The translations under genes were made by a program, and so were the position numbers. Below the pieces are notes generated by a model. It had not been told where the DNA came from. It did no database searches and saw only the letters and a program-made list of their open reading frames with translations. This document shows, piece by piece, positions 57,304 to 64,000 of a stretch of DNA of 64,000 bases. Source of the stretch: Candidatus Woesearchaeota archaeon (GTDB taxonomy: Archaea; Nanobdellota; Nanobdellia; Pacearchaeales; GW2011-AR1); contig CAZTFL010000001.1 of the NCBI GenBank assembly GCA_964612895.1, forward strand, positions 265,043 to 329,042, read 5' to 3'. Position 1 is the stretch's first letter; every line of letters begins with the position of its first letter.

Positions 57304-58110
57304 TTATGCCCAACTCTTACTGATTTTTTCTTTCCAAAAAGATGGTAATGGAATGTCAATAAATCCTTGAAACTTATTAGAATATACGTAAGTTAGTCCT
57401 TTTATTTCATTATACTTCTCAAAATCTTCTTGTATTTTTTTATATATTTCTTGAATTATTTTTCTTTCAAAATCTTTTTGTAATAATGAGGATTTTTTTA
57501 ATATCAAAAAATCTGCTTGTCTTAAAATATTAACTTCTAAATTTGAAGAATTTTGTGATACAAATAATATACTTATGTCTTTATGTCTTGCAATCATAAT
57601 TAATTCGCTTAGTAATCTATTAGCGTTTGTCATGGACTTTCTTGAATTAAATAAAATTCCACCTTCATCTATTAAAACAAAAGACTTATTTGTTATTTGA
57701 GCAATATCAGATATCGAATTTATCCATTCTGGTAATTCTTCCTCGTTAAAACCTATTGCAAAAATTTTTTTATTTGATTTTGAATGAATATTTTCTAATA
57801 ACTTCAAACCGAAAGCACTTTTCCCAGAGCCCCTTGAACCTAGAACTATCCCAATCTGACTATCTGATTTTAGTAAATTATTAAACAAATCTAAATATTT
57901 TCCTTTCTCTGATTTAATTATTTTGACTTCTTCATATTTTGATTCAATCAGGATTCTTTTATGTTTTTGATTTATTTTTTTAATTTTTTGTTTAGATTCT
58001 TTAAATAATGAAATGCAAAATTTAATCAATATGAATGGTAATTTAAGTAATAATAAAATTATTTTAAATAAATTATATAAAACATTTTTCTTCTTTTTGT
58101 TCTTTTTCAT
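57304..58110 (-). CDS. Membrane-anchored P-loop NTPase
   Basis: N-terminal TM. Walker A is VLGSRGSGKSAFGLKL. Walker B-like is FVLIDEGG. Confidence 0.5.
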   Translation of the reverse strand: MKKNKKKKNVLYNLFKIILLLLKLPFILIKFCISLFKESKQKIKKINQKHKRILIESKYEEVKIIKSEKGKYLDLFNNLLKSDSQIGIVLGSRGSGKSAFGLKLLENIHSKSNKKIFAIGFNEEELPEWINSISDIAQITNKSFVLIDEGGILFNSRKSMTNANRLLSELIMIARHKDISILFVSQNSSNLEVNILRQADFLILKKSSLLQKDFERKIIQEIYKKIQEDFEKYNEIKGLTYVYSNKFQGFIDIPLPSFWKEKISKSWA

Positions 58111-58134
58111 ATTATATAGAAATAAATCTTGTTT

Positions 58135-59046
58135 TTATTTTCTTGCTTTAACTAAATCTGTGACTAATTTTGACATTTCTCCTAAAAAGGCGTCAGACAT
58201 TACAAAAAGTTCATCTAACATTTTTCCTTCTATACTTGTTTTTACTCCATGAACTATATCTTTAGCTATTGTATGAATGATATCATAATATTTAACATAT
58301 TTTTTATCTAATAATTTGTTTTTTACAAAATTATCTTCTAATACTTTTGAAATATCCTCTGGAGAAGCGGGCATTATATCTGCAGAAATTAAAGCTGCGT
58401 GTGCTGCATCAACCATTCCCCAATAAATACCATCAACTACAGCCAACATTAATCCTTTTGCTCTTGTAAAATGAGTTGGAGCCCTTTCTAATAATGTATA
58501 AATTGATTCTGGGGTTGCCCTAATTTTCCCTTCTTTTAATAATAGCCTTAATGGTGCAAAGAAACCTCCGAAATCTATCAGTGGTTCTCCACTTCTTAAT
58601 ATATTTAATACTATTGGATCACCTCTTAGTAAATCGTTCCACCATGTAGATAACTTAACAGAACTTATGTGTAATGGTTTTTGATATTTATTTTGTTCTA
58701 ATATTATCGCAAGTCTTTTTCTATACCATGCAATTAATTCTTCATCAAATTTTATAGAAATATCATCAATTAATATAATTACATCTATATCTGATTGTTG
58801 AGTAGAATCTTTTTTAACACTTGAACCAAACAAAACTATAGATTTAATCATTGTATCAAATTCTTTATAGATTTTTGTTGCGAAATCCATCGCAATTTCT
58901 TGTTCTGTTGCTAACAACATTGTGTTTTTAACTGTCTGAATTCTTTTCATTAGTTGACTCTTATTCTTTGGTGGAATAGAATAATCTTCTTTTTTATTAT
59001 TTTTAGAACTATTATTAGATTTTTTTGCCATAATCACTCTCTTCAT
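58135..59046 (-). CDS. Polbeta-superfamily nucleotidyltransferase with C-terminal helical (possibly HEPN-like) domain
   Basis: LFGSSVKKDSTQQSDIDVIILID matches the minimal NTase signature GS-x(n)-DxD. The C-terminal ~150 aa is helical and includes ERAPTHFTRAKG. Confidence 0.55.
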   Translation of the reverse strand: MKRVIMAKKSNNSSKNNKKEDYSIPPKNKSQLMKRIQTVKNTMLLATEQEIAMDFATKIYKEFDTMIKSIVLFGSSVKKDSTQQSDIDVIILIDDISIKFDEELIAWYRKRLAIILEQNKYQKPLHISSVKLSTWWNDLLRGDPIVLNILRSGEPLIDFGGFFAPLRLLLKEGKIRATPESIYTLLERAPTHFTRAKGLMLAVVDGIYWGMVDAAHAALISADIMPASPEDISKVLEDNFVKNKLLDKKYVKYYDIIHTIAKDIVHGVKTSIEGKMLDELFVMSDAFLGEMSKLVTDLVKARK

Positions 59047-59175
59047 TAGTTTATAGTAGTCATATTTTATAAATCTTTTTGAAGAGAAAATATTTTAATA
59101 AACATAATAATAATAATGTTTTCAAAAAGTATTAAATTTAATTAACTTTAAATAGTATATATATTAATTTATTAT

Positions 59176-59337
59176 ATGGCATCAACACCACCTGGACCAC
59201 AAAAAATGAAAATAGATTATACTATTGACAGAAAAGTCTATGATTCTTTTGTTAAAACATGTAGCCATAAGGGATTTGCCCCACAGGTTATAGTTGAAAG
59301 ATTAATGGGCAAGTTTGTGGAAAAAGGCCAAGTTTAG
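59176..59337 (+). CDS. Small ribbon-helix-helix (CopG/RHH-type) DNA-binding protein, 53 aa
   Basis: Own translation: MASTPPGPQKMKIDYTIDRKVYDSFVKTCSHKGFAPQVIVERLMGKFVEKGQV. It has a beta-strand then two helices in the RHH pattern. It is below the 60-aa ORF-track cutoff, so it is absent from the track. Confidence 0.4.
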   Translation: MASTPPGPQKMKIDYTIDRKVYDSFVKTCSHKGFAPQVIVERLMGKFVEKGQV

Positions 59338-59374
59338 ATTTTATAATAATTTTATTTTTTTATTTAATATTTTT

Positions 59375-60190
59375 TTATTTATAACATTTATCCAATATTG
59401 TATCAAAAGAACTATTTATTTTTCCTGCCATAAATTCATAAAATTCTTGTTCTCCTTTGGATAGTCCAGTATTGTCCTGTGCTCTATTATTATTATAACC
59501 ATCTACAGCATTTTCCAGATGAGTATAGTAATCAAATCTTTCTCCTGATTTTATTATTGGCATTGGAATTTTGTAATGATTTAAAATTATATTTTGTAAT
59601 GTTCTTGCGGTCCTACCATTCCCATCAACAAATGGATGTATTCTTGCTATTTGAAAATGGGCAAATGCTGAAGCAATTATTACATCAACTGGATCAATTG
59701 GATTAGCATTTTCTATTTTACTAAATTGTTTATTTAAAGAACAAACGAAACTTGGAATTTCATAATTTGAAATTTTTTCATAATTTGGCATCACTTTACA
59801 ACCATTTTTACCATTTAATCTAGCAGAAACTGTTCTATATTTTGCTATAGAATTATCATATATTTCTGGTGAAATCATTCCTGCTATTTCTCGAACAAAT
59901 GATTCTTCAAAATTTTTTGGATTAAAATTTTTTATTCCCCATAATCTTGCATTATTAATAGATTTTATACCATTTCTTGTTGTTTTTTTTCTTGTACTTC
60001 TTGATACTGATGGAAATTCATTGTAAACATTGGGATTTTCTATTTTGTATGATTCATATTCGGCATCTTCTATAATTCTTTTCATTTGATTTTTTTCACA
60101 TTGAAAATAAAAATTATCATTTTCTATAGAATTTAGTATTCTATATTTATTTCTTAATTCAGAAGATAATTGCCTAGAAACGCATTCCAT
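59375..60190 (-). CDS. Fic/Doc-family protein (AMPylase-type)
   Basis: Canonical Fic motif HPFVDGNGRTARTL. Confidence 0.8.
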   Translation of the reverse strand: MECVSRQLSSELRNKYRILNSIENDNFYFQCEKNQMKRIIEDAEYESYKIENPNVYNEFPSVSRSTRKKTTRNGIKSINNARLWGIKNFNPKNFEESFVREIAGMISPEIYDNSIAKYRTVSARLNGKNGCKVMPNYEKISNYEIPSFVCSLNKQFSKIENANPIDPVDVIIASAFAHFQIARIHPFVDGNGRTARTLQNIILNHYKIPMPIIKSGERFDYYTHLENAVDGYNNNRAQDNTGLSKGEQEFYEFMAGKINSSFDTILDKCYK

Positions 60191-61384: not shown

Positions 61385-61524
61385 TTTGTTTTTTAATTTT
61401 TATAAAATGTCTATTTATTGTATTTAACATCGGGGTTTAAGGGAAGTTTATAATAGGATTTTGAGCGAAGCGTCCTTTGAATTTTTGAATTGCATATAAT
61501 GTTCACAGAACTAAGAGGGAAATT

Positions 61525-62268
61525 TTACTTGTATATATTTATCGTTTTAGATTTTCTATAAGGTTTTTGTGCAGAATTTTGGAGATGTATTTTTGTCAAA
61601 GATTCAGCAATAGAATGACAACCTGTACAAACCACAATTAAATTATTCTTATTATTATTTGATGGATTTTTATCTATGTGATGAATGTGTAATTGTCTTT
61701 TATTTTCTCCACATAACTGACAAGCATTGTCTGCCCTATTAAATAATTCTTTTTGAACATTATTCTTTATTGGAACTCTAACTTTTCTATTTAATTCTTT
61801 TTCGTCATCAAATCCTAAATCTATTGAACTTCCTTTTTTCTTTATGTATTGAGGTTTTGGTGCTTCTCCTAACCACTGGCCTTCCTCTTCTTTCCATTCT
61901 TTATCAGAACCATATTTACATTTTTTACAAATATAATAATGTCTGTCATACTTTATATCTCTCATTATTGTTTTTTGACTCCCAGGGTCATTTTCAGTTG
62001 TTCCATCAGAATATTTGTAAACTTTGGAATGATATGTATATGGTTCTTTCTTTATTCCTAAATCTTCTTTCCATTCAATATGTTCTTTTTTAAAAAAAGG
62101 TCTTTTACAATGAGGACATCTTGTGTCCCAAATAAAATAAGTTAATCCACAAAAAATGAAAGCAATTATAATGGAGGTAGTCATTAGATTTGAAGAAACG
62201 TTACTTCCAACAATAGAATAAATAACTAAACCAATCCAAATAAGACTAACAAACACGGTATAATACAA
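61525..62268 (-). CDS. Membrane-anchored zinc-ribbon plus HNH endonuclease-domain protein
   Basis: Two N-terminal TM helices. The middle has CPHCKRPFF and CKKCKYG. The C-terminal HNH motif is CQLCGENKRQLHIHHIDKNPSNNNKNNLIVVCTGCH. Confidence 0.6.
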   Translation of the reverse strand: MYYTVFVSLIWIGLVIYSIVGSNVSSNLMTTSIIIAFIFCGLTYFIWDTRCPHCKRPFFKKEHIEWKEDLGIKKEPYTYHSKVYKYSDGTTENDPGSQKTIMRDIKYDRHYYICKKCKYGSDKEWKEEEGQWLGEAPKPQYIKKKGSSIDLGFDDEKELNRKVRVPIKNNVQKELFNRADNACQLCGENKRQLHIHHIDKNPSNNNKNNLIVVCTGCHSIAESLTKIHLQNSAQKPYRKSKTINIYK

Positions 62269-62379
62269 TGGATCTTTGTAAAATGGAAGTGGTTCTGTAT
62301 TATTTATTATATAAATATTATAATTATTAATATTAAATACTTTTCTGTTTTGATTTAAGACGCCCCTTCATATTATTTT

Positions 62380-62660
62380 TTTCCGCAGAAAAAGGCACTC
62401 TGTCCGTAGGACTCGGAATCCCCCCTCGTTCGTTTCGTTTTTAGAAAATTACCCCCTTCGTTAGCCCCTGAAATTATTGAATAGAACATCGGAATTTAAC
62501 GAAGTCGTGAGTGTAGCGAACGATTTGGGTGGAGAAACCTGCAAGGTTTCGGAACCGTTAAATTCCTGTTAGTTTCCCCTGAATACTTGGAAGGGTTGAT
62601 TTTTAGTGCAACGATGCCGAAGGCAAAAACTCAAAGTTGCAAATTCTCGTTTATCAATTT
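62380..62660. ncRNA. Candidate structured non-coding RNA of unknown class: a GC-rich, hairpin-dense, non-coding stretch
   Basis: Local GC is far above the window background. Perfect hairpins include gatggt-ggga-accatc, ggaa-ccgttaaa-ttcc and aacc-tgca-aggtt. There is long-range cgttcg/cgaacg complementarity. A repeated gttag(n)cccctgaa motif occurs twice. No ORF lies in it. Identity and strand are unresolved. Confidence 0.2.
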
Positions 62661-62661
62661 A

Positions 62662-62674
62662 AGAGGGCACTTCA
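62662..62674. repeat. Left terminal inverted repeat (agagggcacttca), paired with 63584-63596
   Basis: Perfect 13-bp reverse-complement match to tgaagtgccctct at 63584-63596, read directly from the sequence. Confidence 0.8.
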
Positions 62675-62724
62675 GGATGGTGGGAACCATCAGTTTGTAG
62701 AATTAGGAGTTTGTCGCTGTTTTA

Positions 62725-63474
62725 TTATTGAGTCCTTGTTTTATCAATTACTTGGAGTTCTTGTTCTAGCATTGGATGACCAACACCAAAATAAAGTCTT
62801 CCACCTTGCAAAACTTCTGTTGCTCCAACTAGCAAATTCTGAGTTTTCTCAAATAATTCATAATTAAATGGAACATCAGTTTCTAGAACTCTTGGAAGAT
62901 TGTTTCCAGAGCGAGGTCGAGCAATATCAAAAATATAAGTTTTTGAGGTTGGATCTCTGACTACAATAAAAGAATGATTGCCTAAATCTGCTGAAGGAGA
63001 TTGTGCCTCAACTCCGCTCATATAAGAAGCAGAGTATCCATCTTGTAGAACATTTTGAAGTAGATATTGACCTAAAGAAGCTTGTTCTGCACACATTGCA
63101 ACACCCTTTAAATCAGTTAGTTTCGCTTTTTCATCATGGAATTTAGCTTTTCTTTCTAAATCGCTTGGAGGACTTTCAGGTTTTACATCCATTACTGTTT
63201 GAACTTTTCTTTGAACTGTATTTGCAACAAAGAAAAGATAAGGGTCAACTTTTGAACCTACTTGAGACAACCAATCTGTTACTGATTGTCTATGTTGCTC
63301 GTAAGCTTCTGAAATTTTTTGTGGAGAATGATAGTTATCTAATTCTCCATTGAAACTATCAAAATCTAGGGCAATTTTGGTTGTAAGCTCATCGCTAAAT
63401 ATAGAACCTCCAACAGGCAATTCTTGTCCTCTTTCTAGTCTATCTGCCCAAATACCCCTATATATCTTTTTCAT
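62725..63474 (-). CDS. Hypothetical protein with atypical composition, possibly a transglutaminase/papain-like Cys-His fold
   Basis: 249-aa ORF. It is much less Lys/Asn/Ile-rich and more GC-rich than all other genes here. GVAMCAEQASLGQYLL followed by GNHSFIVVRD loosely resembles Cys ... His-Asp transglutaminase-like cores. Confidence 0.35.
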   Translation of the reverse strand: MKKIYRGIWADRLERGQELPVGGSIFSDELTTKIALDFDSFNGELDNYHSPQKISEAYEQHRQSVTDWLSQVGSKVDPYLFFVANTVQRKVQTVMDVKPESPPSDLERKAKFHDEKAKLTDLKGVAMCAEQASLGQYLLQNVLQDGYSASYMSGVEAQSPSADLGNHSFIVVRDPTSKTYIFDIARPRSGNNLPRVLETDVPFNYELFEKTQNLLVGATEVLQGGRLYFGVGHPMLEQELQVIDKTRTQ

Positions 63475-63583
63475 ACTATTATAGTGTAAGAGCTGGTTTT
63501 AAATGTTTCGTTTTGTTACTACTATCAGGTGTCTAATTAACAAGGCGACAAGCTCCATTTTAGGGGCGGGTGGTCGGGGGAAT

Positions 63584-63596
63584 TGAAGTGCCCTCT
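63584..63596. repeat. Right terminal inverted repeat (tgaagtgccctct), paired with 62662-62674
   Basis: See left repeat. Confidence 0.8.
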
Positions 63597-63740
63597 CCTA
63601 TCTTTTAACTCAAAATTTAGAGAATTTGCAATTGAAACTAACATAGATTAAACGAACTTTTATTCTGAGGACATTTCGTTTAATCTTCCTATTTATCCTA
63701 AAAAGAGAATAAATCTTTTATTTTATCTATACAAAATTCT

Positions 63741-64000
63741 ATTATGAGTTATACATTACCTATTGATACTTTTATTTCAAAACTGCAAGAAAGAATTAAA
63801 CTAAGAGAATTTAGTGAACAAACTAAGAAAAGTTATTGCTATCATGTTAAGGATTTTCTATTATTTTTAGATAAAAGTAGACTTAATCTGAACGAAGAAG
63901 GAATTAAGTCATATCTACTTTCTCTTAATTTATCAAATAATTCTGTTCGTCTAAAAATTATGGCTATTAAATTTTTCTTCTTGGAAGTGCTAAAAAGTCC
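63741..64000 (+). CDS. XerC/XerD-like tyrosine recombinase, N-terminal SAM-like domain only (truncated by the window end)
   Basis: Own translation: MSYTLPIDTFISKLQERIKLREFSEQTKKSYCYHVKDFLLFLDKSRLNLNEEGIKSYLLSL. This matches the N-terminal core-binding domain pattern of Xer/phage integrases. No stop before 64000. Confidence 0.5.
   Translation, partial: MMSYTLPIDTFISKLQERIKLREFSEQTKKSYCYHVKDFLLFLDKSRLNLNEEGIKSYLLSLNLSNNSVRLKIMAIKFFFLEVLKS

Follow-up and report, generated by a model that had tools for sequence, protein, structure and literature searches.

What kind of element places a single gene between perfect inverted repeats, next to the gene for a tyrosine recombinase? The question arises near the right end of the archaeal DNA analysed here, a stretch of 64,000 nucleotides (hereafter the window). 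Three candidates had been put forward from the sequence: a MITE-like or IS-derived passenger cassette, a Xer-mobilised module, or an RNA whose two ends pair. In our analysis, positions 62487-63641 are probably one mobile cassette of a short array, which ends about 100 bp upstream of a xerA-class gene and represents an integron-like platform of Xer type.

The inverted repeat and the extent of the cassette

The repeat is perfect, as first described: the reverse complement of AGAGGGCACTTCA (62662-62674) recurs without a mismatch at 63584-63596. In simulated 1.8-kb regions of the same composition, 9% contained some perfect 13-bp inverted repeat by chance, and 1 in 5000 contained one with at least 7 G/C. 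The repeat encloses one ORF (62725-63474, minus strand, 249 aa), and the start of the recombinase gene, at 63744, is 148 bp away from the right arm. However, the arms are not the termini of the element. They form the third (H3) of four nested, collinear pairings, in related loci homology continues outside both 13-bp arms, and the real cassette extends over 62487-63641 instead of the 62662-63596 drawn originally.

These observations bear directly on an IS-derived or MITE-like transposon with terminal inverted repeats and a passenger gene. A perfect, GC-rich 13-bp repeat around one ORF has that appearance, and the repeat pair does flank other cargo elsewhere, in six further loci with cargo of other lengths; within the window, by contrast, it is present once, and a search there for further copies of the repeat or the module found none. 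Furthermore, the repeat is internal to a longer homologous unit, the cassette holds no transposase features (which the initial annotation had also noted), and target-site duplications are absent, since the bases flanking the arms on the outside are unlike (ATTTA versus CCTAT). The units are also arranged in tandem, in a single orientation and at a single locus. A transposon is thus an extremely unlikely explanation.

Parts of the array

The features to which we refer below are as follows (coordinates within the window, strand, description).

61417..61501, plus: degenerate left array end, resembling the junction at 62476-62505; left-arm-like ATTGTATTTAA, then CATCGG, a small GCGAAGC hairpin and a second left-arm-like ATTGCATATAA
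61525..62268, minus: ORF with membrane segments and a weak C-terminal HNH motif (HNH_3, E = 9e-4, which falls short of the Pfam cut-off); as with most cargo, it runs antisense to the folded strand
62359..62486, plus: R0, a C-rich segment ending in left arm ATTGAATAGAA (62476-62486)
62487..62566, plus: spacer CATC and optional U1 stem-loop (stem 62491-62501 with 62556-62566)
62567..62579, plus: TG and right arm TTAGTTTCCCC of the dif-like core; 62567-62576 is the H1 3' strand
62577..62639, plus: Px hairpin (62577-62595, conserved loop GAATACTTG) and 38-nt conserved core (62602-62639), which holds a GCC-GAA-GGC hairpin and its enclosing helix
62635..62648, plus: H2 3' strand, pairing with 63620-63633 (100% of cells paired)
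62662..62675, plus: H3 3' strand, the left arm of the repeat first noted, pairing with 63583-63596
62675..62693, plus: hairpin with a GGGA (GNRA-type) loop
62706..62718, plus: H4 3' strand, pairing with 63544-63556
62725..63474, minus: cargo gene, 249 aa, a transglutaminase-fold enzyme with an invariant Cys128-His167-Asp183 triad
63497..63504, minus: TATA-like box ATTTAAAA, ~26 nt upstream of the cargo ATG
63544..63556, plus: H4 5' strand GGCGACAAGCTCC
63561..63580, plus: G box TAGGGGCGGGTGGTCGGGGG, unpaired
63583..63596, plus: H3 5' strand, the right arm of the repeat first noted
63620..63633, plus: H2 5' strand GAGAATTTGCAATT
63631..63641, plus: left arm ATTGAAACTAA of the dif-like core; the H1 5' strand (63634-63643) starts with the last 8 nt of this arm
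63642..63698, plus: right array end, with spacer CATAGA, a terminal mini hairpin (63646-63655 with 63676-63685) and TTCCTATTTATCC
63744..64000, plus: 5' part of xerA; the full gene (276 aa) is present in L154, the same locus

Four nested helices (about 51 bp) join 62567-62718 to 63544-63643 on either side of the ORF: H1 (62567-76/63634-43), H2 (62635-48/63620-33), H3 (62662-75/63583-96) and H4 (62706-18/63544-56). Together, the two segments make up a module of ~330 nt. At the cargo 3' end lies one half, the body, with the right arm, Px, the 38-nt core and the 3' strand of each of H2-H4; the other half, R, lies upstream of the cargo and contributes the matching 5' strands (H4 to H2) together with the G box and the left arm. 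R0, which is homologous to the region upstream of the body in locus L055, is an R half remaining from a previous or decayed cassette, and the ORF at 61525..62268 may be the cargo of a decayed neighbour. We infer crossovers directly after 62486 and directly after 63641. The right array end, which has equivalent terminal hairpins in L012, L096 and L032, is possibly an attI-like site.

The cargo gene

The Cys ... His-Asp pattern recognized earlier in the 249-aa ORF is well founded, with Cys128, His167 and Asp183 invariant in 36 homologues; a Pfam search with this ORF gave no family match. Its unusual composition is similarly real. Of the 43 ORFs in the window it has the highest GC content (0.352; mean 0.269 +/- 0.038) and the lowest content of Lys+Asn+Ile (0.133; mean 0.284 +/- 0.053). 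The conclusion once drawn from this, recent horizontal acquisition, does not hold: the GC3 of the ORF is host-typical (0.156 against a window mean of 0.151), and so its odd composition reflects the amino-acid make-up of the protein and not a recent import.

The TATA-like box ATTTAAAA is kept upstream of the cargo homologues in L001, L006 and L008, which suggests that it is a promoter and that the cargo gene, judged from its sequence, has its own promoter and a leaderless mRNA. The same transglutaminase-fold cassette occurs in four different contexts (the window, L005, L044 and L148). Its orientation relative to body and R is identical wherever both halves are visible (the window, L005, L065 and L148), and relative to the body it is also unchanged in L006, L008 and L044. 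Three independent assemblies (L006, L007 and L008) all stop 128 nt upstream of the ORF, a coincidence that likely reflects an assembly break at the repeated module.

The constant orientation is important for another explanation, that of an invertible segment in which the neighbouring recombinase flips the ORF between the inverted repeats as a phase switch. Inverted repeats around a single ORF, with a tyrosine recombinase gene 148 bp away, would suit such a switch, but all loci with the cassette show one orientation relative to the visible halves. The halves are also asymmetric, core and Px being confined to one of them and the G box to the other, and synteny ends at the dif-like core outside the repeats and not at the repeats themselves. 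We therefore consider inversion very unlikely.

Covariation and folding of the module

Each R pairs with the body across its own cargo. In an alignment of 24 units, 92.7% of cells were paired across the cargo, compared with 82.4% in shuffles, and compensatory changes were found in 37 of the 69 pairs, with 20 pairs changed on both sides in shuffles; none of 500 shuffles reached the observed value for either measure. Slid controls gave 34-55%. Four of the 24 units pair poorly, and their R half has probably been mis-assigned. Compensatory changes affect 11 of 13 pairs in H4 and 9 of 12 in H3, and at least five unrelated H3 or H4 sequences remain complementary; within the body they occur in Px (3/4), the enclosing helix of the core (4/9) and the core hairpin (2/4). 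The strand asymmetry of the pairs is weak (96 G.T cells versus 38 A.C, 47 of the G.T cells coming from two invariant pairs).

Pairing is weaker between a body and the R immediately before it than between that body and the R across the cargo. For one and the same body, the R across the cargo gave -81.6 and the R directly upstream -53.1 in L005; in L093 the values were -76.5 and -46.0. Folded as single-stranded DNA, the circular junction of the window's cassette reached -64.4 kcal/mol (z = -7.3), whereas the contiguous genomic unit, consisting of R0 and the adjacent body, reached -38.6 kcal/mol (z = -0.22), no better than shuffles. Thus, the early suggestion of an RNA with pairing ends captured a strongly covarying long-range fold, but this fold closes only when the halves are joined as a circle. 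It may form in RNA or in single-stranded DNA; by analogy with integron attC and the attP of CTX phage, the folded form is most likely single-stranded DNA.

An alternative is that the module is a structured non-coding RNA gene of DPANN archaea, transcribed antisense to the cargo, into which foreign genes integrate as they do into tRNA genes. The near invariance of the unpaired core, G-box and loop sequences across phyla is in keeping with this, as are the GNRA-type and GAA loops and two invariant U.G pairs, all on one strand, the TATA-like boxes before units and T-runs after them on the folded strand, and the raised GC content of the module within an AT-rich genome. However, the contiguous unit that would be transcribed is chimeric, with R mismatching body (second copy of L005, L038, L074 and L093), and in the window it folds like shuffles, as shown above. 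T-rich stretches on the folded strand, just upstream of the H4 strand of R and between cargo and R, make a single long transcript over the cargo seem unlikely. Rfam offers no family: at gathering scores, Rfam 15 gave no relevant match in the window or in 16 loci (two tRNAs were found elsewhere), and at E <= 10 there were only chance matches in window positions 62250-63750 and the contiguous L126 unit. Moreover, C-GAA-G mini-hairpins are also classic stable DNA hairpins, which counts against an RNA gene. We judge this reading improbable.

Two sets of known RNAs were also considered. A by-eye likeness to RNase P CR-I (minus strand, 62395-62425) and to SRP helix 8 was dropped because it had no covariance-model support and the loops indicate the other strand. 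A group I or II intron, or a split or permuted RNA gene, was rejected because cargo content and length vary, array units are chimeric and T-rich stretches separate the halves.

The junction core and the recombinase

Over 97 junctions the consensus is ATTGAAnnTAA|TCGCTG|TTAnTTTCTCC, that is, a dif- or attC-like core of 11-nt inverted arms and a 6-nt spacer. Cassettes end there, and among those with a common R half identity breaks off exactly after the left arm. An example, ATTGAATATAA TCGCTG TTATATTCCCC, agrees by manual comparison at about 19-20 of 28 positions with the dif site tested in P. abyssi, ATTGGATATAA TCGGCC TTATATCTAAA (PMC2958812). A search of the window with a short dif-like pattern was uninformative (7 matches, 9 expected).

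A stem of the U1 kind is present in 68 of 95 contexts and covaries among loci; junctions without it read TAA|TCGCTG|TTA. On their own, the U1 stem-loop domains measure 37-175 nt; for comparison, the imperfect palindrome by which attC is defined, with L boxes and extrahelical bases, has 57-141 nt. Where U1 lies within the spacer, the arms would be ~80 bp apart in double-stranded DNA. In addition, the four junction spacers of the window are unlike (CATCGG, TTCCTG, CATAGA and TCTTCC), so that classical Xer strand exchange would be hindered.

In 10 loci and in the window, the last R is followed on its 3' side by xerA in the same orientation; no locus has the gene 5' of the array. Where the 3' flank extends for 2.5 kb or more (33 loci), only 6 loci show xerA there. 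With the NCBIfam model recomb_XerA_Arch, the 276-aa recombinase of the window, whose full sequence comes from L154, scores 222.9 bits, above the cut-off of 220, but with the integron-integrase model TIGR02249 it scores 204, under the cut-off of 265. The homologue in L032 likewise passes the XerA model and fails TIGR02249. No recombinase was found among the scanned cargo ORFs. With dif-like ends and a XerA-class gene at the array end, a Xer-mobilised module fits best among the three candidates named at the outset, and that suggestion was broadly right.

Spread and cargo

Searches for the 38-nt core gave 109 metagenome stretches and 35 contigs of GTDB genomes, almost all of which carry DPANN labels (Pace-, Woese-, Nano-, Aenigm- and Altiarchaeota, with a few other labels), and a search of viral contigs with the core pattern gave no match. 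In about 50 loci an R-half 12-mer, the G-box sequence GGGTGGTCGGGG with one mismatch allowed, lies 0.7-3.6 kb downstream of the core on the same strand. At least two bodies share a strand in 24 of 143 loci. Cargo ORFs are mostly antisense to the folded strand (50, versus 12 sense) and varied, including GmrSD, Mrr, a DUF4344 peptidase, a CAAX protease and a GT4 glycosyltransferase.

Relationship to integrons and other Xer systems

These arrays resemble integrons in many respects. Tandem cassettes, mostly in one orientation, hold a diversity of accessory and defence genes; every ORF is followed by a structured site, and the folded strand is antisense to the cargo, the bottom strand in integron terms; the recombinase gene stands at the array end, divergent from the cassettes. 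The crossover AA|C, which is G|TT on the cargo strand as expected of an integron, would split the site, so that a cassette regains a matched site only as a circle. Similarly, the U1 junction has the layout of R box, spacer, L box and variable loop in attC: nnTAAC, a short spacer, a covarying stem of 9-11 bp with a variable loop between its two strands, and then G|TTAnnT. Might these then be canonical archaeal integrons with clusters of attC sites, the U1 junction being an ordinary attC, the recombinase an integron integrase and the rest a lineage-specific decoration? Integrons have been reported from Nanoarchaeota and Aenigmatarchaeota (PMC9668308), and the arrays may already be counted among the published archaeal integrons, although six accession prefixes of the genomes studied here are absent from three supplementary text files of that paper.

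Other features speak against an ordinary integron. The recombinase is of XerA class, lacks the IntI insertion and falls on the XerA side of both model cut-offs given above. The 7-mers of U1-type junctions keep AAC and GTT but otherwise differ (AACTAAC, GTTAGTT, GTTAATC) from RYYYAAC/GTTRRRY, and the U1 stem is missing from many junctions. The whole site of ~330 nt, with its near-invariant 38-nt core and G box common to DPANN lineages, holds ~230 further conserved nt and helices H2-H4 split by the crossover, which have no attC counterpart. Whereas attC splits 6 nt off the rest, the crossover here would lie at the hairpin tip and divide the site into roughly 100 and 230 nt, so that the extended stem cannot form locally within the array. 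Finally, unlike integron cassettes, that of the window, at least, seems to carry its own promoter. A canonical integron is therefore unlikely.

The Xer-type platform that we prefer also has relatives among elements that exploit host Xer recombinases. The pdif modules of Acinetobacter plasmids carry genes between inversely oriented XerC/D sites. They share with our cassettes small cargo modules, Xer-type bounds, inverted symmetry around the cargo and the lack of an internal recombinase, but their bare 28-bp sites differ from a 330-nt structured module with covarying long-range helices in an array beside the recombinase gene. The plasmid resolution sites cer and psi have about 180 bp of accessory sequences and thus, like the sites here, a long functional flank on one side of the Xer core; unlike here, these are protein-binding double-stranded DNA, with no hairpin covariation and no bracketing of cargo.

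The 11-nt inverted arms and 6-nt spacer are those of a Xer/dif site, close to the tested P. abyssi dif, and Cortez et al. (PMC2958812) noted inverted repeats beside the dif sites of archaea. The array abuts xerA here, whereas dif and xerA are not neighbours in Thermococcales. Like IMEX, the elements carry no recombinase and integrate in tandem at one locus, and CTX phage, an IMEX, presents its attP site on a folded single strand, as our elements are predicted to do. Unlike IMEX, they are 1-4-kb cassettes without replication or virion genes, none is found in viral contigs, and every cassette brings a large conserved module. The terms IMEX, hijack and dif-like are all absent from a 2021 review of tyrosine recombinases in archaea, and our literature search, motif strings included, found no description of the element in the searchable papers.

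A model for cassette mobility

In the model that we propose, XerA would act on the dif-like cores of adjacent units, each with two 11-nt arms around a 6-nt spacer, and recombination between them would release the cassette as a circle that joins R directly to body. The circle's strand antisense to the cargo could then adopt a long, interrupted hairpin that has the core site at the tip, and in this form it would serve as substrate or activator when the cassette re-inserts beside xerA. Neither an excised circle nor an empty site was seen in any read or contig. That the halves match only after excision suggests that structure distinguishes the excised from the integrated state.

A bolder version is possible, and we offer it tentatively. 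The ~330-nt module may be an active nucleic-acid device that is built only on cassette circularization, as a junction-spanning RNA or a folded single-stranded DNA, and whose invariant core and G box would bring in the housekeeping XerA, or license it, for cassette insertion next to xerA. If this were true, gene capture by a tyrosine recombinase would here be gated by structure and form a new class, and the system could be a living intermediate between Xer/dif and integrons.

In the Xer-type platform itself we have what appears to be a bona fide XerA system with a dif-like core and an attC-like fold, and XerA-run sites that combine these two would bear directly on a long-held view, that integron integrases and attC derive from Xer/dif. 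The 330-nt module, which is strongly covarying, shared across lineages and without an Rfam family, would also be a useful marker for cassette arrays in archaeal metagenomes. Little is known of how DPANN archaea, which are host-dependent and have very small genomes, acquire and exchange their accessory and defence genes. A cassette platform conserved over several of their lineages would provide a main route for such exchange.

Results

The inverted repeat and its setting

The inverted repeat reported in the initial annotation was recovered: the 13-mer AGAGGGCACTTCA lies at 62662-62674 and its exact reverse complement at 63584-63596, with the minus-strand ORF of 249 aa (62725-63474) located between the two arms. 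By chance, simulated AT-rich 1.8-kb regions contain a perfect 13-bp inverted repeat, whatever its composition, in 9% of cases, and one with at least 7 G/C in 1 of 5000. The repeat had been described as terminal. However, it is the third of four nested and collinear pairings around the ORF, identified in a complementarity scan between the left and right ORF flanks, and no target-site duplication stands beside it in the window.

Pairings between the ORF flanks (complementarity scan)
H1: left strand 62567-76, right strand 63634-43
H2: left strand 62635-48, right strand 63620-33
H3, the reported repeat: left strand 62662-75, right strand 63583-96
H4: left strand 62706-18, right strand 63544-56

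The wobble pairs of H1-H4 are, without exception, G.T on the plus strand, and the GC content of the flanks is 40-58% on both sides, versus ~27% for the genome. Rfam gave no match on either strand of the window flanks, in 16 loci bearing the conserved core described below, or in a contiguous unit of L126. The ORF had also been described as compositionally unusual and, on that ground, recently imported. The first part stands: among 43 window ORFs it ranks first in GC (0.352) and last in Lys+Asn+Ile content (0.133). The second does not: its third-position GC (0.156) is average for the window, so the bias resides in the protein sequence and gives no sign of recent import.

Spread of the module

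The pairings belong to a module in two halves. The body, at the 3' end of the cargo ORF, carries a right arm, the Px hairpin, a 38-nt core and the 3' strands of H2-H4; R, upstream of the cargo, carries the 5' strands of H4-H2, a G box and a left arm. A degenerate pattern built for the core (window 62602-62639) matched five of five known copies and zero shuffled windows, and was found in 109 metagenome stretches and 35 GTDB genome contigs but in no viral contigs. The labels are almost exclusively Pace-, Woese-, Nano-, Aenigm- or Altiarchaeota, and the complete genome AR20 is among the hits. In ~50 loci the R 12-mer GGGTGGTCGGGG shares a strand with the core and follows it at 0.7-3.6 kb; in several loci it additionally occurs immediately upstream of a body.

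In a profile search, 24 of 143 loci had at least two bodies on one strand, for example L016, with three bodies, and L046, arranged R-body-R-body. An array is closed by a further body or by a simple terminal hairpin (window 63646-63685; likewise L012, L096 and L032). In AR20 (L137), a shorter second body lies immediately past the first R half (769-886); its core (…GGAAAATTTTTGAGTTG) evades the search pattern, and pattern-based counts thus underestimate array length.

Reading of the flanks showed that L131, L135, L123 and L132 carry genuine module copies with conserved flanks. L131 is a 110-kb contig labelled Acidobacteriota, L135 is labelled Patescibacteria, and L123, L129, L132, L138, L150 and L153 are labelled Methanosarcinales; for such non-DPANN bins the alternatives are a binning error and spread of the element to lineages outside DPANN. 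The match in L120 (Cellvibrionaceae) seems fortuitous. A palindrome, GCTTCTTTTTT..AAAAAAGAAG, recurs after body tails (L030, L036, L095, L096, L101, L114 and L124) and may serve as a bidirectional terminator, both for the cargo mRNA and for any transcript of the plus strand. Separately, the contigs of L006, L007, L008 and an ENA contig of P0004 end 128 nt upstream of the ORF start, inside the R half, in two organisms (P0002 and P0004) with two contigs each, probably owing to genomic repetition of the module or to varying cassette content in the population.

Covariation and folding

Each R was linked to the body preceding its cargo, as in an excised circle, and 24 distinct joined units were aligned (alignment A3). 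Across 69 proposed pairs, 92.7% of cells held standard pairs, versus 82.4% after shuffling, and 37 pairs, versus 20, had changed on both sides; neither value was reached in 500 shuffles. When the 3' partner was slid by 1-3 columns as a control, only 34-55% of cells paired. Compensatory change affected 11 of 13 pairs in H4, 9 of 12 in H3, 4 of 7 in H1, 3 of 4 in Px and 4 of 9 in the helix enclosing the core. Complementarity is kept in at least five unrelated H3 or H4 sequences, such as the L148 H3 variant, TTAAAGCGAACTCTG paired with CAGAGTTCGCTTTAA, and others in L032, L045, L066 and L145. Outside the alignment, L006 offers an additional compensatory variant in which H4 is swapped for a 16-nt pair, AAGTTGGGGCTTTCTC and its complement (~45-60 and ~1090-1105), one arm overlapping the extended 3' end of the ORF.

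Pairing of a body is weaker with the R immediately upstream than with the R across the cargo (pairing energy -53.1 versus -81.6 in L005, -46.0 versus -76.5 in L093). As single-stranded DNA the joined unit of the window (338 nt) has an MFE of -64.4 kcal/mol (z -7.3; 0 of 100 shuffles as good), versus -38.6 kcal/mol (z -0.22; 38 of 100) for the contiguous genomic unit (62359-62722). RNA parameters gave -127.9 kcal/mol for the joined unit, with H1-H4 recovered. The stem of the core hairpin survives changes of sequence and length (GCC/GGC, GGGC/GCCC, GC/GC, GCTC/GAGC). Its loops read GAA, GAAA or GTAA on the window plus strand, which indicates that the folded strand is the one antisense to the ORF; C-GAA-G mini-hairpins are very stable in DNA.

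Cargo

The window ORF has 112 homologues, in DPANN archaea and Patescibacteria, none named and none with a Pfam domain. The flanking element is limited to close relatives (at least 82% amino-acid identity: L005, L006/L007, L008, L044 and L065/L148) and is lacking in distant ones (L001, L002, L004 and L009). Window 62523-63661 is matched by L005 at 94% identity, after which the two diverge. The body-to-R interval holds one to four ORFs, 50 antisense and 12 sense to the folded strand, including a DUF4344 metallopeptidase, two GmrSD and one Mrr restriction enzymes, a CAAX protease, an S41-like peptidase, a transglutaminase-like protein and a GT4 glycosyltransferase. The cassette adjoining the recombinase gene xerA varies by locus, with a transglutaminase-fold gene in the window and an Mrr gene in L084. 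A TATA-like box ~26 nt upstream of the cargo ATG is kept even in homologues outside cassettes, and the gene was probably captured along with this putative promoter.

Further left, a decayed junction and an R half (R0, 62359-62486) enclose a minus-strand ORF of 247 aa (61525-62268), an arrangement suggestive of cargo in a degenerate cassette. Its product has membrane segments at the N-terminus, several CxxC pairs and, at the C-terminus, a weak HNH motif (HNH_3, E = 9e-4, under the Pfam cut-off). Window 57304-60190, just left of mscL and the array and with the same genes as L154 7285-8750, carries a P-loop-like ORF (57304-58110), a nucleotidyltransferase-like gene (58135-59046) and a Fic-domain gene (59375-60190); as a group they resemble an accessory islet, or one of toxin-antitoxin type, next to the cassettes.

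Junction and recombinase

The consensus of 97 distinct junctions is ATTGAAnnTAA, TCGCTG, TTAnTTTCTCC: a 6-nt spacer flanked by two inverted 11-nt arms. AA directly precedes the spacer in 83 of 97; the TG and TT after the spacer were preset by the junction-locating procedure and are not independent evidence. One junction, ATTGAATATAA TCGCTG TTATATTCCCC, compares with ATTGGATATAA TCGGCC TTATATCTAAA, the P. abyssi dif site used in experiments (PMC2958812). Identity among cassettes with a common R half ends exactly past the left arm, the window and L005 diverging at ...CTAA CAT|. The arms of one cassette are complementary (forming H1), and those in arrays are chimeric. In 68 of 95 contexts the spacer contains a covarying stem-loop of 37-175 nt (U1), as nnTAAC - ATCG - stem - loop - stem - TG|TTA, a layout resembling that of integron attC; if U1 is regarded as extruded, 6 nt of spacer remain (CATC+TG). 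The interior of U1 (window 62520-62555) holds a conserved ATTTGGRYGGAGAAACCTGCAAGGTTTCG with a small hairpin, also found at this position in many loci (L016, L030, L038, L042, L044 and L096), a conservation exceeding the need of a merely variable loop.

The recombinase gene is truncated in the window and complete in L154, the same locus from a public run, where it encodes 276 aa with tyrosine-recombinase catalytic motifs. The window protein passes the NCBIfam XerA equivalog model (222.9 versus a cut-off of 220) and fails the integron-integrase model (204 versus 265), as does the L032 homologue. Homologues in 10 loci are always on the folded strand, 3' of the last R and often ~60-150 nt away; none lies on the 5' side among 49 loci with enough flank.

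Discussion

These results are consistent with a cassette system based on site-specific recombination. Beside xerA, units follow one another, each made up of spacer, right arm, body, cargo, R and left arm; recombination between neighbouring core sites would excise a cassette as a circle, in which R and body would unite and could fold into an extended hairpin bearing the core site at its tip. One full cassette (62487-63641) lies in the window, between a decayed cassette (R0 and the HNH ORF) and the terminal hairpin. We infer the existence of the circle and XerA as the catalyst. Several observations are difficult for this model: the spacers of the window differ from one another, U1 is placed within the spacer, the strand asymmetry is slight and xerA is present in just 6 of 33 long 3' flanks.

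No description of the element was found in the open-access literature, searched with motif strings included, and the terms IMEX, hijack and dif-like are absent from a 2021 review of archaeal tyrosine recombinases. The archaeal-integron paper relies on detection by canonical attC (PMC9668308), and six accession prefixes of core-bearing genomes are absent from three of its supplementary text files. Judged from open-access text, and with attC likeness assessed by layout, the element appears to be undescribed. It shares cassette arrays, a bottom-strand fold, a putative AA|C crossover and a divergent recombinase gene with integrons, although its recombinase is not classed as an integron integrase, and a dif-like core and host XerA with Xer-exploiting elements. 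The invariant core, the G box and helices split by the crossover in a ratio of ~100 to 230 nt have no counterpart in these systems. The fold may act as single-stranded DNA or as RNA; if the module folds as single-stranded DNA, it would parallel integron attC and CTX-phage attP.
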